A stretch of 64,000 nucleotides of DNA from Rhodospirillaceae bacterium (lineage in GTDB: Bacteria; Pseudomonadota; Gammaproteobacteria; Burkholderiales; SG8-41). Positions 47,747-64,000 of this stretch are shown here, piece by piece (within the stretch, counting starts at the first letter, position 1; every line of letters begins with the position of its first letter). Below the pieces are notes generated by a model. The model was given only the letters and a program-made list of their open reading frames with translations. It had not been told where the DNA came from and made no database searches. Location of the stretch: contig JBLNBW010000107.1 in assembly GCA_050260255.1 (NCBI GenBank), positions 1,848 through 65,847 of the forward strand, given 5' to 3'. Position numbers and translations under genes: made by a program.

Positions 47747-49036
47747 CTACAACGCGCGCGCCATGCAGGTCTGATAGCGTCCGTCCACGCGCCGCGCGAA
47801 CCAGTCGGTGGTGAGCTTGCGCGTGATCTTGGGACTCTTGAGATCGATCCGGGGCAGCATGGCCCGCGGCAGCGGCCTGCGTGCAACGTTGTCGGCCAGC
47901 ACGTACAGCCTGAAGTACAGCCGGCTGCGTTCGAACTCCGCCGTGCGGGAACGCTCCAGGTCCCGCCGTATCTCCGCATGGCTCATCTTGAGGCGGCTCG
48001 CGAGCACGCGCAGTGCGCGCTCGGTGCTGCCCGGCTCCTTCACCGGTTGTCCTTCCTCGTAACGCAGCAGATCGCCGTCGAGGGCGAGCAGGATGCCGCT
48101 TACCTGCGTGACCGCGTGCTGGAACGCCGCGTTACGGCTCGCGTAATGACCCGCGTTGAAATCGGCGTAGCGATAAATGTGCGAATCGTACGACGCCGCG
48201 TAGTCCAGCAGATGCGCGATGCCGAAATACATGCCGCCGCGCCGCCTGAACACTTCGTGCCGTATGCTTCCCTGCACGGGATACGGATAGGGCCGCGCCG
48301 CCGCATGGCTTTCTGCGAACGCAACGCTCACCTGCATGGGGCCGCCGGTTCGCACCGGGTTGCGGTTCGCGAGAAACGGCTTCGCGAGCGGCACCATGCC
48401 GATGAAATCCTCGAATATCTCGGAGAGCTCGCGCTCGGTCTTCACCGCGTCGAGCCGCGCGCTATAACTTTTCCCGTTCGGTGATTTCAGTGCGAGCGCC
48501 CCCCACAGCACGACTTTCGGTATGCCCGAGCGGCTGCGCTGCCGTTCGATCTCCTTCCACGCGATGCGAGACAACCCCGGGACTCGCGGATCCGCGTGGA
48601 AATTCGATTCCTGCTCGGTCACGGCTACCACAGCGCAGATGTTCTCCGGTGTCGGTGCGATCTCCATCGCGGCGAAAGCGGCGTAAATGTCGGTCGCCCA
48701 GCCGTAGCGATCGGCTATGCCCGGTGGCAGGAGGCGCGCCACCAGCGCACGCCCGTCCGCCGCGCTTACGCTCGGCGTCGGAATCGGTTGCGGCGGCAAC
48801 GGAACGGGCTGCGCGCCCCCAGTCGGCGCGGGTGGCGGCGCAGCGGTCGGCGCGGATACGACGGGCGGCTGCTCCGGCGGTGCGATGGCGCCTGGCGCAC
48901 TCTCGCGCACGGGCGGGGCCGTGGCGACCGGTGCACGCTGTCCGCCTTGTACTGCACACCCGGCGAGGACGGCGAATGCGGTAATCGGCAGCCAGTGGCT
49001 GAGCAACCGGTACGGTGTCGTGTTGCGAGGGGACAT
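47747..49036 (-). CDS. lipoprotein with a Pro/Ala-rich linker (possibly DUF1615 family)
   Basis: Start at MSPRNTTPYRLLSHWLPITAFAVLAGC (lipobox LAGC). ~60-aa P/A-rich linker, then a conserved-looking globular domain (AVVAVTEQESNFHADP...GGPMQVSV). Confidence 0.8.
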   Translation of the reverse strand: MSPRNTTPYRLLSHWLPITAFAVLAGCAVQGGQRAPVATAPPVRESAPGAIAPPEQPPVVSAPTAAPPPAPTGGAQPVPLPPQPIPTPSVSAADGRALVARLLPPGIADRYGWATDIYAAFAAMEIAPTPENICAVVAVTEQESNFHADPRVPGLSRIAWKEIERQRSRSGIPKVVLWGALALKSPNGKSYSARLDAVKTERELSEIFEDFIGMVPLAKPFLANRNPVRTGGPMQVSVAFAESHAAARPYPYPVQGSIRHEVFRRRGGMYFGIAHLLDYAASYDSHIYRYADFNAGHYASRNAAFQHAVTQVSGILLALDGDLLRYEEGQPVKEPGSTERALRVLASRLKMSHAEIRRDLERSRTAEFERSRLYFRLYVLADNVARRPLPRAMLPRIDLKSPKITRKLTTDWFARRVDGRYQTCMARAL

Positions 49037-49108
49037 TGGCGCTATGCAGCAGGCCCGCGGGCCATCCATGGCGTGCAAAGGGCGACATTGTATCGATTCG
49101 GCAATCGC

Positions 49109-49146
49109 AGAAAAGGAAAACGCCGGGCACCCGTAGATACCCGGCG
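49109..49146 (-). terminator. rho-independent terminator-like hairpin (minus strand)
   Basis: Minus strand: CGCCGGG-12 nt-CCCGGCG followed by TTTTCCTTTTCT, 70 nt upstream of the lipoprotein ATG. Confidence 0.55.
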
Positions 49147-49350
49147 TCAGCCGATACCTGCCTGCTGCACTGCCGTTTACACCCTCGACCGGGCTACCGG
49201 CGCCGTTGCAGCGCCGGTCGGCACTCGCTACAGCTACCGAAGAGGTAGTTGGGTTGCCCGTGAGAGGCGTTCACCTCGCCGGGTCGCATCTTCGCGCCGC
49301 GGTGGTCCACAAGATCGGCGGGCCGGAACTCCGCTCGACTCGCGAAGCAC
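49109..49350 (-). ncRNA. candidate structured RNA (sRNA or 5' leader), family unknown
   Basis: Bounded by a sigma70-like promoter (TTGAAA-N17-TAAAAG, 49384-49356 minus) and the terminator. Several perfect 5-8 bp stems (CTACC/GGTAG, CCGGCGC/GCGCCGG). No plausible ORF. Confidence 0.3.
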
Positions 49351-49482
49351 TTTTACTTTTACGCTTCGCGCAGCAACTTTTCAAGATCGATGCTTTCTGA
49401 CTGATGCGGTCGCGCGGGCCCGAGCGATCCTTGCAACCGTGATTCATGTTATTTATCGCGATCATCCAACGAGGAAGCCCTT

Positions 49483-51105
49483 TTGAATCTCACTGCTGCC
49501 GCCCCCCGGGTCGAGGCGCGCGATCTCGCCGACGCGCAGTACGACAATAGCTTCGTGCGCGAGCTTCCCGGCGACCAGTCGAGCGACAACGTCGTTCGCG
49601 CCGTACGCAATGCCTGCTACACGCGCGTGGATCCGACGCCGGTGCGCAGCCCACGGCTGCTCGGCTGGTCCGATGCCGTTGCCGACATGCTCGGCATAGC
49701 GCACCCGACATCGGCGACCGGACTCACCGTGCAAGTGCTGGCCGGCAATCGCGTGCTTCCCGGCATGCAGCCCTATGCCGCGCGCTACGGCGGCCACCAG
49801 TTCGGCGTCTGGGCAGGACAGCTCGGCGACGGACGCGCGATCACGCTTGCCGAAGTGATTGCGCCGGACGGCGGCCGCTACGACCTGCAGCTGAAAGGCG
49901 CAGGCCGTACGCCGTATTCGCGCACCGCGGACGGTCGCGCCGTGCTCCGTTCGTCGTTGCGTGAATTCCTGTGCAGCGAAGCGATGCACTCCCTCGGCGT
50001 GCCCACCACGCGCGCGCTCAGTCTCGTGGGTACAGGGGAAACGGTGATCCGCGACATGTTCTACAACGGCAATCCACGGGCCGAGCCGGGCGCCATCGTA
50101 TGCCGCGTGGCGCCCTCCTTCGTGCGATTCGGCAATTTCGAAATCCTGGCCGCGCAGCAGGAGTATGAAAACCTTCGGCGGCTTGCCGATTACGTCATCG
50201 GAATGCATTTTCCCGAGCTCGGTGCGCCATCGCGCGAGACCTACGTTCGCTGGTTCGAGGAGATCTGCCGTCGCACTGCCACGATGGTCGTCGAATGGAT
50301 GCGCGTGGGCTTCGTGCACGGCGTGATGAACACCGACAACATGTCCATCCTTGGACTCACCATCGATTACGGTCCGTACGGCTGGCTGGAAGGCTACGAC
50401 CTCACGTGGACGCCGAACACCACCGACGCCGAAGGCCGGCGTTACTGCTATGGCAACCAGCCTGGCATTGCGCAATGGAATCTCGTGCGGCTGGCAAACG
50501 CGATCTATCCGCTGATAGAGGACAAGGCTGCGCTGGAGCAGGCGCTCGGTGTTTTTGCGAACACGTTCGAGAGCGAGTCGGCACGCATGCTCGCGAACAA
50601 GCTGGGACTCCAGGCCATCGACCGGGAAGGCGACGACGCGATCGTCGCCGAGCTCTTCGAAGTGCTGCAGGCGGTCGAGACGGACACGACGCTGTTCTTT
50701 CGCGGACTGGCCGACGTGCCGCTCGCGGAGCAGGCGACGGACGAAGCGCTCGTCGCGCCGCTTGCGCGCGCGTTCTACGACGAGCTCGGCACGGCTGCGG
50801 AGCACCAAGAGCGCCTCGCGAAATGGCTGCGCGCCTATATCACACGGGCTCGCGCCGACGGCGCGCCGGCAGCGGAGCGCCGCGCTCGCATGAACCGCAC
50901 GAACCCGAAGTATGTGCTGCGCAACTATCTCGCGCAGGAAGCGATAGACGCCTTGTCGGCAGGCGACGCATCGGTGATGGAACGGCTGATGAAAGTCCTC
51001 GAGCGGCCGTACGACGAGCAGCCGGAGCACGAAGCGCTCGCCGACCGTCGTCCCGAGTGGGCGCGCAACAAGCCCGGGTGCTCGGCGCTTTCGTGCAGCT
51101 CGTGA
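49483..51105 (+). CDS. selO: protein adenylyltransferase SelO (YdiU/UPF0061)
   Basis: TTG start 8 nt after GAGG. YAARYGGHQFGVWAGQLGDGRAI, GVMNTDNMSILGLTIDYGPYGW, NPKYVLRNYLAQ. 540 aa, ending ...CSALSCSS. Confidence 0.92.
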   Translation: MNLTAAAPRVEARDLADAQYDNSFVRELPGDQSSDNVVRAVRNACYTRVDPTPVRSPRLLGWSDAVADMLGIAHPTSATGLTVQVLAGNRVLPGMQPYAARYGGHQFGVWAGQLGDGRAITLAEVIAPDGGRYDLQLKGAGRTPYSRTADGRAVLRSSLREFLCSEAMHSLGVPTTRALSLVGTGETVIRDMFYNGNPRAEPGAIVCRVAPSFVRFGNFEILAAQQEYENLRRLADYVIGMHFPELGAPSRETYVRWFEEICRRTATMVVEWMRVGFVHGVMNTDNMSILGLTIDYGPYGWLEGYDLTWTPNTTDAEGRRYCYGNQPGIAQWNLVRLANAIYPLIEDKAALEQALGVFANTFESESARMLANKLGLQAIDREGDDAIVAELFEVLQAVETDTTLFFRGLADVPLAEQATDEALVAPLARAFYDELGTAAEHQERLAKWLRAYITRARADGAPAAERRARMNRTNPKYVLRNYLAQEAIDALSAGDASVMERLMKVLERPYDEQPEHEALADRRPEWARNKPGCSALSCSS

Positions 51106-51178
51106 ATCGTTAGGACGCGCTGCTTACCGTTGCGGCGATGGAACGCGAGCACGGCGCTCCTTGGACGCTGGTCCGCGC

Positions 51179-51634
51179 CTAGCGTTTGCTGGCGAGCAGC
51201 GTGCCGCGGCACTGACGCGTGCCGCATCCGCATGCGTATTGGCGCTTCAACGCCGCGGTATATCGCGCTTCGAGATACAGGTTGTAGTCGATGGTGATCT
51301 CGTCGCCGGCGTGTATGTCGATCAGTGCGTCTATGAATACCCGCCCGTCTTCCTCGCTCGCTTCGCAGTTCGGCTCGCAGCTGTGATTGATCCACCGTGC
51401 GGTGTTGCCGTTGCGGCTGCCGTCGATCACTTCATTGTTGTCGAGCATGAACAGGAAGGTGTGCGTCGTCTCGGTGTAGAGGAAGGCGCTCTCCTCGTCG
51501 GTGATGCGCTCGCCTTTGTACTCGATGAGCCGAGTGCCGGCGGATATGTCGGTCGTCGCGAATACGCCCTTGCCGTGTATGGCGGAACGGCGCACGACGA
51601 TGCGACGCGTGCTTTTCGATTTTTGTGGGTGCAT
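51179..51634 (-). CDS. SET-domain protein (putative protein-lysine methyltransferase)
   Basis: Start at MHPQKSKS. GKGVFATTDISAGTRLIEYKGE, ARWINHSCEPNC (NHSC motif), ITIDY, post-SET CGCGTRQC. 151 aa. Confidence 0.85.
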   Translation of the reverse strand: MHPQKSKSTRRIVVRRSAIHGKGVFATTDISAGTRLIEYKGERITDEESAFLYTETTHTFLFMLDNNEVIDGSRNGNTARWINHSCEPNCEASEEDGRVFIDALIDIHAGDEITIDYNLYLEARYTAALKRQYACGCGTRQCRGTLLASKR

Positions 51635-51765
51635 CGATGCGGAATGCGCTGCGAAAAAAGCTGCGTATTTTAAAGAAGACCGGCACACCCAGCCACTCCG
51701 TACATGCTGATGTGAGGCAGTTGCACACGCGGGTGTCGAGATGAGGTACGGCCGTACGAATCGCT

Positions 51766-52590
51766 TCAGTGTTGCGCGTCCCCACCCTTGATGAACGCGC
51801 GCGGACTGATGCGCAGCGCGCGCCGGAACATCGTCGAGAACGCGCTGGCGCTCTCGTAGCCGAGATCCAGCGCAACGCGCGTGACCGGGGCGCCCGCCGA
51901 AAGGCGCCGTACCGATTCGAGCAGCCGCGCCTGCTGCTTCCAGCGCGCGAAGCTGATGCCGGTCTCCCGCAGAAAGCGCCGATACAAGGTGCGCGCGCTC
52001 GTGTTCGCGGCTGCGGCGTCATCGCCGCAGGGACGGCGCGTGGCAAGATCCGCGAGGATGCGCTCGCACAGCGCAGCGAGATCCGCACTTGCCGGCAGCG
52101 GCAATTCGAGGGCGCAATGTGGCAAGCGCCGCAGTTCCGCAAGCAGCAGACGCATGAGCAGACCATCGTCGCCGGCCTCGTCGTAATACGCCGGCACCGC
52201 AGCTGCGCGTACTACGAGCTCCCGCAAGAGCGGCGTCACCGCGAGCACTGCACACGACGGCGGCATGCCGGGTACCGTCTCGTCGATGTACAGGCTGCGC
52301 ATTTCGACCAACCCGCTCATCTCGATCTCGTGCACCGTGCGCGCCGGGACCCAAACCGCGCGGCTCGTCGGCACGATCCATACGCGGCGCAGTGCCCGCA
52401 CCGTCATCGTCCCCTCGACGGCGAAGATGAACTGTCCTCGCGCATGCCAGTGCGGGCGGATATGGTGGCCGGCCGCATACGTGGCGCGGCGCGTGACGAT
52501 GGCGCGTGGAACCTGCGCCACCGGGCTCTCGGGTGCAGCGCCGGGTTGCTCCGTATCCCGCACTGCGCGTGCGCCGCCGCGACTGTCCAT
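51766..52590 (-). CDS. AraC-family transcriptional regulator with an N-terminal cupin domain
   Basis: ORF 51766..53028 trimmed to MDSRGGARAV. Cupin (HWHARGQFIFAVEG) plus a C-terminal AraC HTH (VALDLGYESASAFSTMFRRAL). Confidence 0.85.
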   Translation of the reverse strand: MDSRGGARAVRDTEQPGAAPESPVAQVPRAIVTRRATYAAGHHIRPHWHARGQFIFAVEGTMTVRALRRVWIVPTSRAVWVPARTVHEIEMSGLVEMRSLYIDETVPGMPPSCAVLAVTPLLRELVVRAAAVPAYYDEAGDDGLLMRLLLAELRRLPHCALELPLPASADLAALCERILADLATRRPCGDDAAAANTSARTLYRRFLRETGISFARWKQQARLLESVRRLSAGAPVTRVALDLGYESASAFSTMFRRALRISPRAFIKGGDAQH

Positions 52591-56710: not shown

Positions 56711-57041
56711 GTCAGGCAATGAGCTCACCAATGATCGGTTGCGGGATGTCGGAAAAAGGCCCTGCGGCACATGCAAGAAGCGGCCCGGACTTTAACGCAT
56801 GCGCACGCACGTGCACGGCCGGTCGGGACCGCCGGCCCGTGGGTGCGTCCCGATCCCATGGCTGTGCTCCGAGCGACATGGCATAAAATGGTCGGCACAC
56901 GGGTTCGATCGTCACAATAATGGATCTCTGCACATCCGCCCATTTTTCATTGCACGTCTGCCGATATGTCGGGCGCCGACATGTATGGACCCGCGCCGTG
57001 AAGGGCTGTCCACGCCGGTCTTCTCGTGATGCGCTGATGTC

Positions 57042-58295
57042 ATGAGCGATACAGCGACGGACAAGGCGCGCGAGGCGGCCGAGCGACTCTATCGAACCGA
57101 GTCGCGGCGCGTCCTCGCGACACTGATACGGCTGCTCGGCAGCTTCGACCTCGCCGAAGAAGCGCTGCACGATGCATTCGCGGCGGCGGTCGAGCAATGG
57201 CCAATCGAAGGCATCCCGCACAACCCGCGCGCCTGGCTCGTGTCCGCCGGACGATTCAAGGCTATCGACCGAATACGTCGCCGCGCGAAATTCGATGCGA
57301 CGCTTGCCGAGCTTGCGCGCGAGCTCGACGAGGATGCGGAAATCGCGCCGGAGCCCGATGCGGACAGCGTGCAGGACGATCGTCTGCGCCTTGTATTCAC
57401 GTGCTGCCATCCGGCGCTGCCCCCCGATGCGCAGGTCGCGCTCACGTTGCGCGAGGTATGCGGCCTCACCACGGAGGAAATCGCCCACGCATTCCTCACC
57501 GCGCCGTCCACGCTCGCGCAGCGCATCGTGCGCGCCAAGAACAAGATACGCGCCGCGCGCATTCCCTATCGAGTGCCCACGCAGGAGGATTTGCCCGAAC
57601 GCCTAGACGCCGTGCTGCGCGTGATCTACCTTGTATTCAACGAAGGTTATTCGGCGTCGTCGGGCGAATTGGTCACGCGCCACGATCTCTCGGGCGAAGC
57701 GATCCGTCTCGGCCGGCTGCTGGTGGAGCTTCTGCCCGAGCCCGAAGTGCTGGGACTGCTCGCGCTCATGCTGCTCCAGGAATCGCGACGCGCGGCCCGC
57801 ACGTCCGCCGAGGGTGAAATCATTCTGCTCGCCGATCAGGATCGCACGCTGTGGAACCGTGAGCAGATCGCCGAAGGCCATGCGCTGGTGCAACGCGCGC
57901 TGTCGTCTCAGCGGATCGGGCCCTATGCATTGCAAGCCGCCATCGCAGCGGTACATGCCGAAGCGGCGAGCGAGGCCGACACCGACTGGCCGCAGATCGT
58001 TGCGCTGTACGATGTGCTCATGCGCGTGCATCCCACACCGGTGGTCGCACTCAACCGCGCGGTCGCCGTCGCGATGCGGGATGGCCCGCAAGCGGGTCTT
58101 GTCATCGTCGACGCTCTTCTCGCCGCAGGCGATCTCTCCGATTATCACTTGGCACATGCGGCCCGCGCCGATCTCTGCCGTCGGCTCGGCCGGAAAGCCG
58201 AAGCCCGCGCATCGTATCGGCGCGCGCTCTCGCTCGTACGCCAGGCGCCCGAACGGCGCTTTCTCGAACGCCGGCTCGCCGAACTCGCCGGCTGA
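57042..58295 (+). CDS. ECF sigma factor with a long C-terminal TPR-like extension (ECF42-type)
   Basis: 417 aa. Sigma2 (NPRAWLVSAGRFKAIDRIRR), sigma4 (ALTLREVCGLTTEEIAHAFL...AQRIVRAKNKI), then a ~230-aa extension (VIYLVFNEGY...). Adjacent YCII/DGPF genes. Confidence 0.88.
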   Translation: MSDTATDKAREAAERLYRTESRRVLATLIRLLGSFDLAEEALHDAFAAAVEQWPIEGIPHNPRAWLVSAGRFKAIDRIRRRAKFDATLAELARELDEDAEIAPEPDADSVQDDRLRLVFTCCHPALPPDAQVALTLREVCGLTTEEIAHAFLTAPSTLAQRIVRAKNKIRAARIPYRVPTQEDLPERLDAVLRVIYLVFNEGYSASSGELVTRHDLSGEAIRLGRLLVELLPEPEVLGLLALMLLQESRRAARTSAEGEIILLADQDRTLWNREQIAEGHALVQRALSSQRIGPYALQAAIAAVHAEAASEADTDWPQIVALYDVLMRVHPTPVVALNRAVAVAMRDGPQAGLVIVDALLAAGDLSDYHLAHAARADLCRRLGRKAEARASYRRALSLVRQAPERRFLERRLAELAG

Positions 58296-58313
58296 CCACC
58301 GCTTCTCGCCCGA

Positions 58314-58340
58314 TGTCGATTTGCGGGAGCGCCATTCGAC
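58314..58340 (+). promoter_or_regulatory. candidate ECF42-dependent promoter P1 (TGTCGA-N17-CGAC)
   Basis: cgATGTCGATTTgcgggaGCGCCAttCGACTA, 34 nt upstream of the YCII gene ATG. Nearly identical block at 58772-58798. Confidence 0.6.
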
Positions 58341-58373
58341 TAGGATAGTGTCCCGCTCACTTTGGAGAACCCC

Positions 58374-58757
58374 ATGAAGTTCCTGTGTTTGATCTGCGCG
58401 GAAAAGGTCATGGAACAGATGCCGGAAGCCGATGCGGCGGCGCATTACCGCGAATATGCTGACTTTACGGAATCGATACGCCGCAGCGGCCATTTCATAG
58501 ATTGCAATCGCTTGCTGCCTGCAGCGACGGCCACGACAATACGGGTGCGCAAAGGCGCGATCACCGCGACCGACGGCCCGTTTGCCGAAACGAAGGAACA
58601 GTTCGGCGGCTATTACGTGATCCGAGCGCGCGATTTGAACGAGGCTATCCTGGTCGCCTCCAGGATTCCCGGCGCGGCGCGTGGTTGCGTGGAAATCCGG
58701 GCGATCGCTGATGATCAGCAGACGGTGCAGGCGCTCGGATTGCCCGGCGCCGCCTAG
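58374..58757 (+). CDS. YCII-related (DGPF) domain protein
   Basis: MKFLCLICAEK..., TDGPFAETKEQFGGYYVIRARDLNEAILVASRIP: the classic YCII/DGPF pattern. 127 aa. Confidence 0.88.
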   Translation: MKFLCLICAEKVMEQMPEADAAAHYREYADFTESIRRSGHFIDCNRLLPAATATTIRVRKGAITATDGPFAETKEQFGGYYVIRARDLNEAILVASRIPGAARGCVEIRAIADDQQTVQALGLPGAA

Positions 58758-58771
58758 GCCGACGTTTACGA

Positions 58772-58798
58772 TGTCGATTTCGGCATGCGCCAAACGAC
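58772..58798 (+). promoter_or_regulatory. candidate ECF42-dependent promoter P2 (TGTCGA-N17-CGAC)
   Basis: cgATGTCGATTTcggcatGCGCCAaaCGACTA, 32 nt upstream of the second YCII ATG. Same spacing as P1. Confidence 0.6.
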
Positions 58799-58829
58799 TA
58801 CAAGCAGCTAACCCATTGGAGGAGAACGC

Positions 58830-59207
58830 ATGAAGTATCTTTGCCTGGTCTATCTGGACGAGCGCCGTTTGGACGAGCTGCCGGACGAAGACTGCGTCGC
58901 TTACGACGCATCGATACGGGCGAGCGGCCACTGCATTGCGTCCGAAGCGCTCGAATCCGTGCAGACCGCCACAACGGTCCGCGTGCGCGACGGCAGGGTG
59001 TCGGTCACCGACGGGCCGTTCGCCGAAACCAAGGAACAGCTCGCCGGCTTCTACATGATCGATGCGCGCGACCTCGACGAAGCCATCCACATCGCGTCGA
59101 AAATCCCGCCGGCGCGCGTCGGCAGCATCGAAGTTCGTCCCGTGCGGCCGATACGCGAGACGGTCGCCCAACGCAAAGCGCCCGCTGTGGCAAAGGAGGC
59201 ATCATGA
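58830..59207 (+). CDS. YCII-related (DGPF) domain protein
   Basis: MKYLCLVYLDE..., TDGPFAETKEQLAGFYMIDARDLDEAIHIASKIP. GGAGGAG SD. Stop overlaps the next start (ATGA). Confidence 0.9.
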   Translation: MKYLCLVYLDERRLDELPDEDCVAYDASIRASGHCIASEALESVQTATTVRVRDGRVSVTDGPFAETKEQLAGFYMIDARDLDEAIHIASKIPPARVGSIEVRPVRPIRETVAQRKAPAVAKEAS

Positions 59208-60328
59208 AACTCTTGATCACCGTAGCCACGCGCAAGGGCGCGTGGCTGTATCACGGCACTTCTGCGCGCGATACCTGGCGTGTAGACGGCCCGCATTTCC
59301 TCGGCCACGTGATCAGCCAGGTGGTGCTCGATCCGCGCGATCGCACGACGCTGCTTGCAGCGGCTAAAACCGGGCATCTGGGCCCCACGATCTTCCGCTC
59401 CACCGATCTCGGTCGTACCTGGAAAGAAGCCGCACAGCCGCCGGCTTTCGCCAAGGCGACGGCCGGTGCGCAGGGCCGCTCGGTCGATCACACGTTCTGG
59501 CTGACGCCGGGGCCGGCGAGCGAGCGCAACGTGTGGTACGCAGGCACCTCGCCGCAAGGTCTTTTCCGCTCCGAAGACGGCGGCGTGACGTGGCAGCCGT
59601 TTTCCACCATCAACGAGGACCCGCAGTACCGCAAATGGATGGGCACCGTGCAGGACGGAACGCCCGATGGGCCCAAGCTGCACTCCATCATCGTCGATCC
59701 GCGCGATCCGGCGCACATGTACTTTGCGATGTCGGGCGGCGGCGTTCACGAGACGCGCGACCGCGGGCGCACGTGGACTCCGCTGCTCAAGGGACTCGAG
59801 GTAGTCGAAGGTTTCGATCGCAGCGAGCCGACCTTTCACGACCCGCATTGCATTCGCATGTGTCCGACCAATCCGGACCGTCTCTATCAGCAGAATCACT
59901 GCGGCATTTACCGCATCGACCGCCCGTCCGACGTGTGGCTGCGCATCGGCAAAAACATGCCGGCGCACGTCGGAGACATCGGCTTTCCACTGGTCGTCCA
60001 TCCGCGCGATGCGAACGCCGCGTGGGTGTTTCCGATGGACGGCACGACGGTATGGCCGCGCACGAGCCCGGACGGCAAACCGGCGGTGTACGGCACGCGC
60101 AATGCCGGTGAAACGTGGGATCGGCTCGATGCAGGCTTGCCGCGCGAGCAGGCATGGTGGACCGTGAAGCGTCAGGCCATGACGGCCGATGCAGCCGATC
60201 CCGTCGGGCTTTATTTCGGCACGACGAGCGGCGAGCTCTGGGCGAGCCGCGACGAAGGTCGGAACTGGGCGTGCATGGCGCAGCATCTGCCGGAGATCTA
60301 CGCAGTGGACGCGGCGCAACTCGAGTAG
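59204..60328 (+). CDS. BNR/Asp-box beta-propeller protein (sialidase-fold, Ycf48-like), cytoplasmic
   Basis: AAGGAGG SD. Repeated S/T-x-D-x-G-x-T-W boxes (STDLGRTWK, SEDGGVTWQ, TRDRGRTWT, NAGETWD, SRDEGRNWA). No signal peptide. 374 aa. Confidence 0.8.
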   Translation: MKLLITVATRKGAWLYHGTSARDTWRVDGPHFLGHVISQVVLDPRDRTTLLAAAKTGHLGPTIFRSTDLGRTWKEAAQPPAFAKATAGAQGRSVDHTFWLTPGPASERNVWYAGTSPQGLFRSEDGGVTWQPFSTINEDPQYRKWMGTVQDGTPDGPKLHSIIVDPRDPAHMYFAMSGGGVHETRDRGRTWTPLLKGLEVVEGFDRSEPTFHDPHCIRMCPTNPDRLYQQNHCGIYRIDRPSDVWLRIGKNMPAHVGDIGFPLVVHPRDANAAWVFPMDGTTVWPRTSPDGKPAVYGTRNAGETWDRLDAGLPREQAWWTVKRQAMTADAADPVGLYFGTTSGELWASRDEGRNWACMAQHLPEIYAVDAAQLE

Positions 60329-60337
60329 CCGTCGGCG

Positions 60338-60595
60338 ATGAAAGTACTGATACCGAGCGCGCTGCGGTCCTACACCGAAAGCAGCATCGCCGAAGCGAGC
60401 GGCGCGACGCTCGCCGAAGTGCTGGCCGACCTGGATCGCCGCTACGCAGGCATACGGTTCCGCATGGTCGATGAGCAGGATCGCATACGGCGTCATATCC
60501 GCGTGTTCGTAAACGGCGAGCAGGTGCACGACCTCGCCCGAACCCTGGCGCCGGCCGATGAAGTCGTCATCGTGCAGGCCTTGAGCGGCGGCTAG
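60338..60595 (+). CDS. MoaD/ThiS-family ubiquitin-like beta-grasp protein ending in Gly-Gly
   Basis: 85 aa. ...HIRVFVNGEQVHDLARTLAPADEVVIVQALSGG*. Starts 9 nt after the propeller gene stop. Confidence 0.78.
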   Translation: MKVLIPSALRSYTESSIAEASGATLAEVLADLDRRYAGIRFRMVDEQDRIRRHIRVFVNGEQVHDLARTLAPADEVVIVQALSGG

Positions 60596-60667
60596 CGGCC
60601 GAATCGCGCGCGACACCATCGACTCGAGGCAAGCGTCCGATCGACGCGACACCGAAGGGAGAACACC

Positions 60668-61084
60668 ATGCGATACATGATCCTCGTGAAAGCGACCAAG
60701 GATTCGGAAGCCGGCGTGATGCCTCCCGAGCATCTCATCGCCCAGATGGCGGCCTTCCACGAAGAACTCGCGCAAGCCGGCGTGCTCGTCGACGCATCCG
60801 GGCTGCAGGCGAGCTCGAAAGGATGGCGCGTACGCTACAACGGGAGCGAGCGGACGCTAATCGACGGTCCGTTCACCGAGACCAAAGAACTGATTGCGGG
60901 CTACACGATCATCCGCGTGAACTCGCCAGAAGAAGCGCTGGAATGGTCCTTGCGCTTTCCCAATCCGTCCATCGACGGCAGACACGCAGAAATCGAAGTG
61001 CGGCGCTTCTTCGAGCTGGACGATTTCGGTCGCAGCAAGGCGGTAGACCGCTTTCGCGAGCTCGAAGCGAGCAGGGCCGCGTAA
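60668..61084 (+). CDS. YCII-related (DGPF) domain protein
   Basis: MRYMILVKATKDSEAGVMP..., IDGPFTETKELIAGYTIIRVNSPEEALEW. GGGAGA SD. 138 aa. Confidence 0.9.
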   Translation: MRYMILVKATKDSEAGVMPPEHLIAQMAAFHEELAQAGVLVDASGLQASSKGWRVRYNGSERTLIDGPFTETKELIAGYTIIRVNSPEEALEWSLRFPNPSIDGRHAEIEVRRFFELDDFGRSKAVDRFRELEASRAA

Positions 61085-61109
61085 CGAGCGCACCACCGGA
61101 GAGACGAAT

Positions 61110-61532
61110 ATGAAAATCGAGCCTTATCTTTTTTTCGAAGGTCGCTGTGAAGAAGCCATCGAGTTCTACCGCAACGCGGTCGGCGCGGAAGTTTTGATGC
61201 TGATGCGCTACAAGGACAGTCCCGAAACGCCGCCGCCAGGCCAATTGCCGCCCGGTTCCGAGCAGAAGATCATGCATGCGTCGCTGCGCATCGGCGAAAC
61301 GAACGTCATGGCCTCCGACGGCTTCTGCAGTGGAGCGACGAAATTCCAGGGGTTTTCGCTGTCGCTTACCGCAAAGAACGAAGGCGAAGCGGACAAGCTG
61401 TTCGCTGCGCTGAGCGATGGCGGGCAGGTTCAGATGCCGCTTGGGAAGACGTTCTTTTCGACGCGTTTCGGCATGCTGGTCGATCGCTACGGGGTGTCGT
61501 GGATGATCATCGTGCCCGCCCCCGAACGCTGA
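61110..61532 (+). CDS. VOC/glyoxalase-fold protein (PhnB-like)
   Basis: MKIEPYLFFEGRCEEAIEFYRNAVGAEV...IMHASLRIGETNVMASDG...DRYGVSWMI: the PhnB/3-demethylubiquinone-MTase-like family pattern. Confidence 0.88.
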   Translation: MKIEPYLFFEGRCEEAIEFYRNAVGAEVLMLMRYKDSPETPPPGQLPPGSEQKIMHASLRIGETNVMASDGFCSGATKFQGFSLSLTAKNEGEADKLFAALSDGGQVQMPLGKTFFSTRFGMLVDRYGVSWMIIVPAPER

Positions 61533-61549: not shown

Positions 61550-61583
61550 AAAAAAAAAGCAGGGCGAACGCCCTGCTTTTTTT
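61550..61583. terminator. bidirectional rho-independent terminator
   Basis: AAAAAAAAA-GCAGGGCG-aa-CGCCCTGC-TTTTTTT, between convergent genes. Confidence 0.9.
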
Positions 61584-61884: not shown

Positions 61885-62883
61885 TCATTGCGGCTGGATG
61901 CCGGCGCTTTTCACCACCTTCGCCCATTTGGCGGTCTCGCTGCGAATGAACGCCCCGAATTCCTCAGGCGAGGCGCTGGGCATCGGCTCGGCACCGTCGC
62001 TTATGAAGCGCTTGCTGACGGTTTCGTCCCGCACGGCCTGAACGATCGCCTCGTGCACCTTGTTCACGATTTCGCGCGGCGTGCCGGCTGGTGCCAGCAC
62101 GCCATACCAGGTCGTCGCCTCATAGCCCGGGAATCCCACTTCGGCGATCGCCGGAATCTCGGGCGCGGTCTTCACGCGGTTCGCGCTCGTCACCCCGAGC
62201 GCCCGCACCCGCCCGGAGCGCACGTGCTGCAGCGAGCTCATCACATTGCCGAACATGATGGGCGCGTGCCCGGCGACCACGTCGAGAAACGCCGCCCCGC
62301 CGCTCTTGTAGGGAATGTGCACGATCTTGATGTCCGTCATGCTGATGAGGAGCTCCATCGCGAGATGCGCCGTGCTGCCAACGCCCGGCGACGCATAATT
62401 GATCTGTCCCGGCCGCGCTTTGGCGAGCGCCACGAAGCCCTTCACCGATTCGACGGGCAGCGAAGGGTGGACAATCATCATATTGGGCATCACCACGGCC
62501 AGTGACACCGGCGCGAAATCCCGCTCCAGGCTGAAAGGAATGTTTTTCATCAGCGCCGGATTGCTTGCGTTCGACGCGATCATGGCCGCGAGCGTGTATC
62601 CGTCGGCCGGCGCACGCGCAGCGATTTCGAGCCCGATGTTGCCGGCCTGTCCGGGCCGGTTGTCGATCACGATGCGTTGACCCAGGATGTCGCCGAGCTT
62701 GGGCGTAATGATGCGCATCGTCGTGTCGGTGCCGCCGCCCGGCGAAGAAGGCACGACGAGACGCACCGGCTTTTCCGGATATGCGCCGAACGCCGGCATG
62801 GCAGCGCCAGCGAGCGCGAGACCGCCCAAAAGAAGGCCGCATTGGGACGTGCGTGCGAGACGGTGCAGCGTGTTCCACGACAT
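61885..62883 (-). CDS. Bug/TctC-family substrate-binding protein
   Basis: ORF trimmed to MSWNTLHRLARTS... (GGAGGAG SD). YPEKPVRLVVPSSPGGGTD motif. 332 aa. Confidence 0.9.
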   Translation of the reverse strand: MSWNTLHRLARTSQCGLLLGGLALAGAAMPAFGAYPEKPVRLVVPSSPGGGTDTTMRIITPKLGDILGQRIVIDNRPGQAGNIGLEIAARAPADGYTLAAMIASNASNPALMKNIPFSLERDFAPVSLAVVMPNMMIVHPSLPVESVKGFVALAKARPGQINYASPGVGSTAHLAMELLISMTDIKIVHIPYKSGGAAFLDVVAGHAPIMFGNVMSSLQHVRSGRVRALGVTSANRVKTAPEIPAIAEVGFPGYEATTWYGVLAPAGTPREIVNKVHEAIVQAVRDETVSKRFISDGAEPMPSASPEEFGAFIRSETAKWAKVVKSAGIQPQ

Positions 62884-62930
62884 GAGGCTCCTCCTATATT
62901 GTGTCGACGTGACGGATCGATGTCCGCTTG

Positions 62931-64000
62931 CTACGTTTCTTCCATCACCAGCCCGGCGGTAGACGGTGACGCAAGCGCGCGTGCGAGCTCGCCGATGTCC
63001 TGCAACCTCTCGGTACGACGGCACAGTGCGAGCACGCGCTCGGCGCCACGTGGCCCGAGCGTGCGCGCAACACAGTCCATGAACTTGGCCTTGCGATCCT
63101 CTTTCGTAAGCGGCCATGCCGGCGAGCCGGGCACGCGATCGACACGCAGCGCAAACGCTCCTCGCGTGGTGTCGAGCTCGATATCCAGAAAGCCGGCGAT
63201 GCCGGAATACACCTTGTCATCCGGGATGCGGTAACGCCGCACTTTCTTCATGAATGCGCGCAGCTCATGCCGCTGCACCATCGCATCGGTAAACGTGTCG
63301 AGCGTGAGCGCGCCGTCGATGAACACGGCCGCCGCGACGTACTCGATGCTGAACTTGCCTTCCAAACCCGTCTGGGGATTGGTGCTCACCAGCGCCGTGT
63401 CGCCGCCGGGCAGGAACCCGATGGCGATTTCGTTTACGTGCGCGGCGCGCAGCTCGTGCTGCGCAATGAGCTGAAAGAGACCGCCGACCGCCCGATGATT
63501 CGAATAGCAGCACGGCCACCGCTTCACGTACACGCCCGGCTCGATGATTTCCCATGGCTTGCCCAGCGATGCGGCCAGATCCCCAGGCAATTCGCCATCG
63601 CCGCCGCCATACGTGTCCAGCACGCCGCCCTCGCCCTCGAAGACCGCCTCGTCTGCGGTAAAGCCCAAGCGTGCGAGCGACGCAGCGGTCACGCCATTGC
63701 GTGCCGCATGCCCCGCGTGGAAGGGTTTCGCCATGGTGCCGAAGTTGCGCACGAGGCCGCTCATCTGCGACGCCGCGATGCCCCATGCACGCCGCAACAC
63801 TGCTGCATCGAGCTTCCACAAGCGTGCCGCGACGGCGGTGCTCGCCAGCGTGCCGATCGACGCGGTGGTATGCCAGCCGCGGATGAAATGGCCATGACCC
63901 AGCGCACGCGACAGCTTGCCGGCCACTTCGAGACCGAGCGCGTACGCTGCCAGCACTTCGGCGCCGGACGAACGCGCGACTTCGCCCACCGCGAGAGCCG
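62931..64000 (-). CDS. MmgE/PrpD-family protein (C-terminal ~350 aa; 5' end beyond the window)
   Basis: Open to the window edge. KPFHAGHAARNGV, GKFSIEYVAAAVFIDG are paralogous to the 22704..24080 product. Confidence 0.85.
   Translation of the reverse strand, partial: ALAVGEVARSSGAEVLAAYALGLEVAGKLSRALGHGHFIRGWHTTASIGTLASTAVAARLWKLDAAVLRRAWGIAASQMSGLVRNFGTMAKPFHAGHAARNGVTAASLARLGFTADEAVFEGEGGVLDTYGGGDGELPGDLAASLGKPWEIIEPGVYVKRWPCCYSNHRAVGGLFQLIAQHELRAAHVNEIAIGFLPGGDTALVSTNPQTGLEGKFSIEYVAAAVFIDGALTLDTFTDAMVQRHELRAFMKKVRRYRIPDDKVYSGIAGFLDIELDTTRGAFALRVDRVPGSPAWPLTKEDRKAKFMDCVARTLGPRGAERVLALCRRTERLQDIGELARALASPSTAGLVMEET

Follow-up and report, generated by a model that had tools for sequence, protein, structure and literature searches.

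A recurrent propeller-ThiS gene pair in the presumptive cis regulon of an ECF42-type sigma factor

The ECF42-type sigma factor and its cluster

ECF42 is among the largest groups of extracytoplasmic function (ECF) sigma factors (>10,000 sequences) and is defined by a C-terminal extension of ~200 amino acids (aa) that contains tetratricopeptide repeats (TPR) and is essential for activity, together with a C or CC motif in sigma-4, an adjacent YCII gene (canonically at -1) and the lack of an anti-sigma factor; the predicted promoter is TGTCGAT-Xn-CGTC (ECF reclassification supplement). The signal and the role of the DGPF/YCII partners are unsettled in the literature. Targets of the vicinal oxygen chelate (VOC)/glyoxalase type are already known for one ECF42 sigma factor, RpoE10 of Sinorhizobium meliloti, for which no autoregulation is reported (PMC6180224). 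A 64,000-nucleotide (nt) stretch of contig JBLNBW010000107.1 (positions 1,848 to 65,847; here called the window), whose closest relatives are Burkholderiales metagenome-assembled genomes (MAGs), carries seven co-directional genes (57042-61532, + strand) encoding an ECF42-type sigma factor, three DGPF/YCII proteins, a BNR/Asp-box beta-propeller, a ThiS/MoaD-family beta-grasp protein and a PhnB/YjdN-like VOC-superfamily protein. The core of this arrangement (ECF42 sigma plus DGPF/YCII and VOC targets) is an already known system, and the propeller-ThiS pair is a recurrent, seemingly undescribed extra module. On balance we favour the reading that the cluster as a whole is an ECF42 sigma gene with its own small regulon, which includes the propeller-ThiS genes as a carrier-type pair.

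The ~55 open reading frames (ORFs) of the window were scanned against Pfam and NCBIfam, and the ORF list and family scans recovered all the genes that a first-pass annotation had placed in this cluster, at the same positions and on the + strand. The sigma gene (57042-58295, +; 417 aa) encodes Sigma70_r2 (residues 16-83) and Sigma70_r4_2 (119-169), with TIGR02937 above cut-off, followed by a C-terminal extension of ~230 aa (residues ~187-417) that carries DUF6596 (E=5e-39). The long extension reported by the first-pass annotation is thus present, and its description as TPR-like corresponds to a sub-threshold TPR_2 match (residues 370-398; 20.9 bits, Pfam cut-off 27). A search of the PDB returned no solved structure spanning the extension. 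The CC motif of sigma-4 lies in FTCCHPAL (residues ~118-125). No anti-sigma domain was found in any ORF flanking the sigma gene, whose neighbours are a divergent major facilitator superfamily (MFS) transporter upstream and YCII-1 downstream, in agreement with the earlier remark that no anti-sigma gene is nearby.

All six ECF42 traits tested were found (sigma-2/sigma-4 core, extension, CC motif, no anti-sigma, YCII neighbour and promoter), and the ECF42 type proposed by the first-pass annotation fits on each of them. Streptomyces venezuelae SVEN_0747 and SVEN_4377, S. meliloti RpoE10, Pseudomonas putida ECF-10 and Pseudomonas aeruginosa PA1351 have the same core plus a ~200-aa TPR-type extension, and the window sigma further resembles known members in having no anti-sigma gene, DGPF/YCII neighbours and a TGTCGAT...CG(T/A)C promoter. 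With RpoE10 it also shares VOC/glyoxalase-type targets and the lack of an autoregulation motif ahead of the sigma gene. Unlike in known members, the YCII genes are downstream of the sigma gene (at +1, +2 and +5, versus the canonical -1) and comprise three paralogues, and the presumptive regulon contains the propeller and ThiS-like pair. Taken together, the cluster is very probably an ECF42 sigma gene with its own regulon in cis.

Over 406 aa, the window sigma and a P. aeruginosa sigma factor share 72% identity, and their extensions align end to end. The P. aeruginosa factor is probably PA1351, to judge from the adjacent genes, which include pmpM and one for a YciI protein that matches PDB 1s7i (PA1349). 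PA1351 belongs to a small number of ECF sigma factors in P. aeruginosa that have neither an anti-sigma partner nor an assigned function. The sequence that carries it (locus L093; NZ_CP133752.1, 1-7054) is labelled a plasmid and resembles the chromosomal PA1349-PA1358 region next to pmpM, with genes for YciI, DUF899, sigma, MFS, VOC, YciI, ThiS, propeller, YbaK and VOC proteins.

Promoters and predicted operon structure

Two near-identical matches to the ECF42 promoter are present on the + strand, in line with the two candidate promoters proposed previously. P1 (58314-58340; 36 bits) consists of a TGTCGA(T) -35 element, 17 nt and a CGAC -10 element within ATGTCGATTTGCGGGAGCGCCATTCGACTA (58312-58343), the CGAC ending 34 nt upstream of the YCII-1 start codon (ATG, favoured over a TTG at 58362). 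P2 (58772-58798; ATGTCGATTT...CGACTA; 32.8 bits) lies within ATGTCGATTTCGGCATGCGCCAAACGACTA (58770-58801), with CGAC ending 32 nt upstream of the YCII-2 start codon. Their consensus, ATGTCGATTT-N13-(A/T)(A/T)CGACTA, i.e. TGTCGAT-N16-CGAC, has the spacing (TGTCGN-N17-CGNC) of the mapped RpoE10 promoters of S. meliloti.

A weight matrix was built from P1, P2 and 12 regular-expression matches upstream of propeller genes in related loci. In the 64 kb window it gave no further site >13 bits besides P1 and P2. The sole other plus-strand motif match (51730-51766, +; TGTCGA...CGAA; 12 bits) lies ~115 nt upstream of a 101-aa ORF (51881-52186) that has no Pfam match, and is probably due to chance. The same scan found no ECF42-type site upstream of the sigma gene, which is therefore probably not autoregulated. 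A perfect 7-bp inverted repeat (ATGTCGG-GCG-CCGACAT; 56966-56982) lies ~60 nt upstream of the sigma start codon; its TGTCGG half-site resembles an ECF42 -35 element and lacks a matching -10, and it could be an operator for a regulator of the sigma gene. This palindrome is not conserved, since the sigma-gene upstream regions of 16 loci have no common motif.

P1 precedes YCII-1 (58374-58757, +; 127 aa; Pfam YCII E=1.5e-17), which has orthologues of 61-76% identity in related loci. P2 precedes YCII-2 (58830-59207, +; 125 aa; YCII E=6e-23), the best PDB match of which is 1s7i, i.e. P. aeruginosa PA1349 (E=8e-38). YCII-2 is the first gene of an operon: its stop codon overlaps the start codon of the propeller gene (59204-60328, +; 374 aa; Pfam BNR and Sortilin-Vps10) in the sequence ATGA, an AAGGAGG Shine-Dalgarno sequence lies ahead of the propeller, and 9 nt separate the propeller stop codon from the start of the ThiS-like gene (60338-60595, +; 85 aa; Pfam ThiS E=2.4e-12, above cut-off), which ends in SGG. 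Both the overlap and the 9-nt gap had been noted in the first-pass annotation.

YCII-3 (60668-61084, +; 138 aa; YCII E=6e-15) and the PhnB/YjdN-like VOC gene (61110-61532, +; 140 aa) follow. The VOC protein matches Pfam 3-dmu-9_3-mt and Glyoxalase, with an NCBIfam YjdN match under cut-off and PDB relatives 1u6l and 3oms. All three YCII proteins are of the DGPF type, each scores above the Pfam cut-off and each contains DGPF(A/T)ETKE. The gap between the ThiS-like gene and YCII-3 has a decayed copy of the promoter motif (GGCCGA-N17-CGAC; 60593-60629, +; -1.3 bits), which is probably weak or inactive; strong motif sites occupy this gap in three related loci (L007, L023 and L052). Because only the decayed copy is found here, YCII-3 and PhnB are probably expressed by read-through from P2 or weakly on their own. 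The cluster is likely closed by a bidirectional intrinsic terminator, predicted as a hairpin between an A-run and a T-run (61552-61583, strand unspecified; -28.7 kcal/mol; z-score -3.3; equalled by 0/200 shuffled sequences). This hairpin was overlooked by a simple terminator scan and was established by folding; an Rfam search gave sub-threshold matches only, on the terminator.

In the arrangement proposed here, the activity of the sigma factor would be governed by its DUF6596/TPR extension, by analogy with studied ECF42 members, and the active factor would bring RNA polymerase to the two TGTCGAT-N16-CGAC promoters. P1 would drive YCII-1, and P2 the translationally coupled YCII-2/propeller/ThiS operon, the P2 transcript most likely reading through YCII-3 and the PhnB-like VOC gene to end at 61552-61583. 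The products would be small cytoplasmic proteins of the kinds associated with ECF42 (DGPF/YCII and VOC/PhnB here, and also DUF1428, SRPBCC and DUF899 in sister loci), a set that fits a response to cytoplasmic chemical, electrophile or thiol stress.

Two long antisense ORFs (57603-59171, -, 522 aa; 59051-60775, -, 574 aa) were rejected as high-GC artefacts without gene support, because the overlapped plus-strand genes match their families strongly and are conserved in homologues. The remainder of the window is ordinary chromosome, including hemC, argH, prfA, hemA, several TctC receptor genes and SelO. In 19093-42657, at least six paralogues of the TctC (Bug-family) solute receptor are interspersed with amidohydrolase, aldolase and HMGL-like genes, and a seventh is located at 61885-63117, a picture typical of Burkholderiales. 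Positions 47747-51688 hold consecutive genes for a DUF1615 protein, the protein adenylyltransferase SelO and a small SET-domain protein.

Linkage of the pair across genomes

Related loci were obtained from a genome scan for the propeller seeded with a five-sequence alignment (a 38-sequence alignment was judged too divergent), which yielded 80 loci (73-83% identity) in MAGs labelled as beta-, gamma- and alphaproteobacteria, Gemmatimonadota, Acidobacteriota and Nitrospinota; five metagenome loci bring the set to 85. A ThiS-like gene is directly downstream of the propeller in 84/85, the exception stopping at a contig edge, with a gap of median 12 nt (range -4 to 84 nt). Two C-terminal glycines (GG) are present in 77/81 copies of the ThiS-like protein from these loci, and the best 120 ThiS-like homologues are all 85 aa long and all end in GG. 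Distant propellers (33-51% identity to that of the window) are still paired with a GG-bearing ThiS-like gene, whose product is 27-40% identical to the window ThiS, and GG is kept in all distant partners examined. In some distant pairs the ThiS-like gene is upstream of the propeller and has a short extension after GG. The propeller and ThiS-like genes make up a two-gene module of ancient origin.

Within 8 kb of the propeller, an ECF42-like sigma gene is found in 16/85 loci, a YCII gene in 29/85 and a PhnB/VOC gene in 21/85, and a YCII-2 orthologue (81-88% identity) lies directly upstream of the propeller in 15/85. When all neighbouring ORFs were clustered, the only recurrent neighbours of the pair were YCII, sigma, glyoxalase/VOC, PhnB-type, DUF1428, SRPBCC and TctC genes. 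Across the related loci (2.2 Mb searched, threshold >=16 bits) 49 motif sites were detected, 40 of them <=200 nt upstream of, and on the same strand as, a YCII (23), PhnB (3) or propeller (14) gene; such upstream positions make up 1.6% of those searched. The matrix had been built with 12 of the 14 propeller sites and with none of the 26 YCII and PhnB sites. Genes of the YCII-3 family are the most often preceded by the motif (16 sites). The 14 sites directly upstream of propeller genes include some in loci with no sigma gene within 8 kb (e.g. L019, L031, L045, L056, L057, L072, L076 and L081), and an ECF42-type site precedes the propeller operon, with or without YCII-2, in 17/85 loci.

Remnants of the association are also found. 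In one locus (L025, 7694-7909) a 33-residue sigma fragment is fused to a YCII-2 fragment just upstream of an intact propeller-ThiS pair, and in another (L017, 3385-3501) YCII-2 fragments precede an intact pair. The linkage therefore appears to be older than these loci, in which its sigma and YCII part has decayed and the pair has persisted. Next to the orthologous sigma gene of P. aeruginosa, a paralogous pair (propeller 34% and ThiS 32% identity) is present, in a neighbourhood that also includes two YciI, two VOC and one DUF899 gene.

Some observations weigh against placing the pair under an ECF42 sigma factor. Promoter use at the window locus is read from the sequence alone, and the -10 element of P1 and P2 is CGAC, not the consensus CGTC, both variants being found in related loci. 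An ECF42-type site is missing from ~50 of the 85 loci, most loci have no sigma or YCII gene within 8 kb, and the P. aeruginosa motif precedes divergent YciI-VOC genes, not the ThiS-propeller pair. Most of the surveyed pairs thus stand without nearby sigma, YCII or motif and in otherwise unrelated flanks, a pattern in keeping with an independent mobile two-gene module that landed in an ECF42/YCII island, where P2 would be the promoter of YCII-2 and the pair would have no functional relation to the sigma factor. We consider this origin distinctly unlikely in view of the ATGA overlap with YCII-2, the YCII-2/propeller/ThiS order in 15 loci, the 14 ECF42-type sites directly upstream of propeller genes that have no YCII-2, the sigma and YCII-2 remnants just described, and the independent adjacency of a paralogous pair to the orthologous sigma gene in P. 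aeruginosa.

At the window locus the pair is itself probably controlled by the window sigma, as the position of P2 suggests, and the suggestion made earlier that a sulfur-carrier or ubiquitin-like module belongs to the presumptive regulon is borne out to the extent that an ECF42-type promoter precedes the operon here and the motif precedes it in 17/85 loci. The association between pair and ECF42 is recurrent but facultative, because ~50/85 loci lack an ECF42-type site and most lack a nearby sigma or YCII gene; the pair is not an obligate ECF42 target. The conservation of the neighbourhood expected by the first-pass annotation accordingly applies to a subset of loci: it recurs in many Burkholderiales and other MAGs and, distantly, in P. 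aeruginosa, and most pairs occur without sigma, YCII or motif.

Two more distant contexts were noted. In Burkholderia (L094), cysS, DJ-1/PfpI and DUF899 genes are found near the pair, and on a plasmid of Rhodobacter sp. CZR27 (L095, 2589-6116) a lone propeller homologue without ThiS is divergently oriented beside egtB and egtD, which are ergothioneine biosynthesis genes. These are anecdotal hints of a sulfur/thiol theme.

The propeller and its ThiS-like partner

The propeller protein has a single seven-bladed Asp-box domain in an AlphaFold2 model (predicted local distance difference test score, pLDDT, 93, with a diverse alignment; an earlier run on 17 close homologues, pLDDT 61, was dropped). 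More than 8000 homologues are present in the database, the best 120 at 80-100% identity, and between MAGs that bear the labels of several phyla the identity is ~75-85%. The closest solved structure is PDB 3b7f (Reut_B4987/YP_299179.1 of Cupriavidus/Ralstonia JMP134), a single seven-bladed Asp-box propeller of the same family (58% identity, TM-score 0.93), which was labelled by structural genomics as a 'putative glycosyl hydrolase with BNR repeats' without an assigned function and is entered with its function 'not known'. The propellers of GH74 xyloglucanase, Ycf48/HCF136 and sortilin Vps10 share the Asp-box fold and are remotely similar (10-19% identity, TM-score 0.35-0.67); GH74 enzymes have two propellers versus one in the window protein, and Ycf48 is a photosystem II assembly factor, whereas the window protein is soluble, cytoplasmic and paired with a ThiS-like gene. 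No signal peptide was found in the propeller, the N-terminus of which forms strand 1 of the fold. Most close orthologues have a Lys/Arg-rich, non-hydrophobic N-terminal tail of ~20-25 residues, which is missing in the window protein and in those nearest to it (all 374 aa). Outside the Asp-boxes, H160, H215, Q230 and R323 are near-invariant and are candidate site residues, to judge from their conservation.

Source annotations name the two products 'glycosyl hydrolase', 'exo-alpha-sialidase' and 'molybdopterin converting factor small subunit'. Taken at face value, these names imply glycoside hydrolase or sialidase activity for the propeller and, for its small partner, the role of MoaD in molybdopterin synthesis, and the Asp-box repeats and remote GH74-domain similarity agree with the first of these. 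We regard this as very improbable. GH74 enzymes have two seven-bladed propellers with the active site in the cleft between them; here there is one, the GH74 matches (TM-score ~0.65, 17-19% identity) cover one GH74 domain only, and the NCBIfam glycosylhydrolase match scores 68 bits against a cut-off of 175. GH74 and GH33 enzymes are typically secreted or periplasmic, while this protein lacks a signal peptide and has a cytoplasmic setting, and the function of 3b7f is given as 'not known'. A glycosidase role is thus unlikely because the protein is a single cytoplasmic seven-bladed propeller. There is no moaE or other moa gene nearby, and the small protein is nearer to CysO than to MoaD. The names 'glycosyl hydrolase / exo-alpha-sialidase' and 'molybdopterin converting factor' are probably wrong on thousands of genes.

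The closest solved relatives of the ThiS-like protein are the CysO proteins of Amycolatopsis orientalis (4n6e_B) and Mycobacterium tuberculosis (3dwg_C). Like the carriers of the CysO/CysM/Mec/MoeZ system of M. tuberculosis and the CysO/BexX system of A. orientalis, it is a small beta-grasp protein of the ThiS family with a C-terminal GG, and its gene adjoins that of a dedicated partner. The partner here is a beta-propeller, not a pyridoxal phosphate (PLP)-dependent or ThiG-like enzyme; no E1, JAMM protease or rhodanese is encoded in cis, and the system is known here from its genes alone. By the rule that genes adjoining those for ThiS-like carriers encode the enzyme using them, the 85-aa protein may be a CysO/MoaD-type carrier, its C-terminal GG adenylated and thiocarboxylated by an E1 encoded elsewhere, and the propeller may be the dedicated partner that binds the GG tail and either makes use of the activated C-terminus or is served by it, in parallel to MoaE, ThiG, CysM and BexX with other carriers. 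Such a sulfur-carrier-plus-partner mechanism is a tentative possibility. The fuller proposal, that an Asp-box propeller and a CysO-like or ubiquitin-like protein form an undescribed carrier system switched on by ECF42 in cytoplasmic thiol or electrophile stress, is more speculative. In a bolder variant, the ThiS C-terminus or a YCII protein may be the ligand of the TPR extension of the sigma factor.

The case for carrier chemistry has to be set against several findings. No E1 (ThiF/MoeB), JAMM protease or rhodanese is encoded among the ORFs of the window, and none is recurrent near the pair in the 85 loci; genes for carrier-activating E1 enzymes often lie elsewhere in a genome. No MoaE, ThiG, CysM or TtuA was found near the pair, whose partner gene encodes the Asp-box propeller, and we know of no sulfur-carrier partner enzyme that is a beta-propeller. 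The conserved Cys residues of the close propeller subfamily are not kept in distant members. In one homologue (P0291, 704 aa) a Ser/Thr kinase is fused to the propeller, which hints at a binding or sensor role, not catalysis. Two further apparent N-terminal fusions (P0258 and P0334) were rejected as frameshifted translations.

The kinase fusion and the frequent use of propellers as protein-binding modules also bear on another reading, in which the small protein would be a ubiquitin-like protein modifier akin to TtuB, SAMP or Urm1, with the propeller as substrate adaptor or main target and conjugation induced by ECF42 under stress. The invariance of GG is consistent with this, as are the short extension after GG in the subfamily with ThiS upstream (L086 and L088), which recalls processed precursors, and NCBIfam SAMP1 as the best named match, under cut-off. 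A predicted ThiS-propeller fusion (P0302, 454 aa; internal SGG followed by a 9-residue linker) points the same way; it may be real or a gene-calling artefact and is weak evidence alone. A modifier function is nonetheless unlikely, as the pair has no linked gene for an E1, an E2-like protein or a JAMM protease, the solved structures nearest to the ThiS-like protein are those of sulfur carriers (CysO), and the single fusion may reflect a gene-calling or sequencing artefact.

A different role, as regulatory partners and not effectors, would have the YCII proteins, the ThiS-like protein or both bind the TPR extension of the sigma factor and turn the factor on or off in a feedback loop. A review has put forward protein interaction via the extension as the means of ECF42 control, with the conserved YCII protein involved, and the window locus has three YCII paralogues. 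Binding of C-terminal peptides is common among TPR domains, which would suit such a role. We give it little credence: the YCII genes are themselves the main sigma targets, and many ECF42 loci have no ThiS-like gene.

The propeller-ThiS pair is absent from the conserved ECF42 contexts in the supplement of the 2019/2021 ECF reclassification, and in the literature searched it is not linked to the ECF42 family; the search found no functional work on the pair, on 3b7f or on PA1351-PA1356. The recurrence of a highly conserved, uncharacterised pair under ECF42-type promoters makes carrier-protein chemistry a concrete biochemical lead, and the P. aeruginosa locus, with its pair beside the orthologous sigma gene, places the open ECF42/DGPF question in a tractable model organism. 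If true, the carrier-system reading would provide the first biochemical handle on the function of the ECF42/DGPF regulon.

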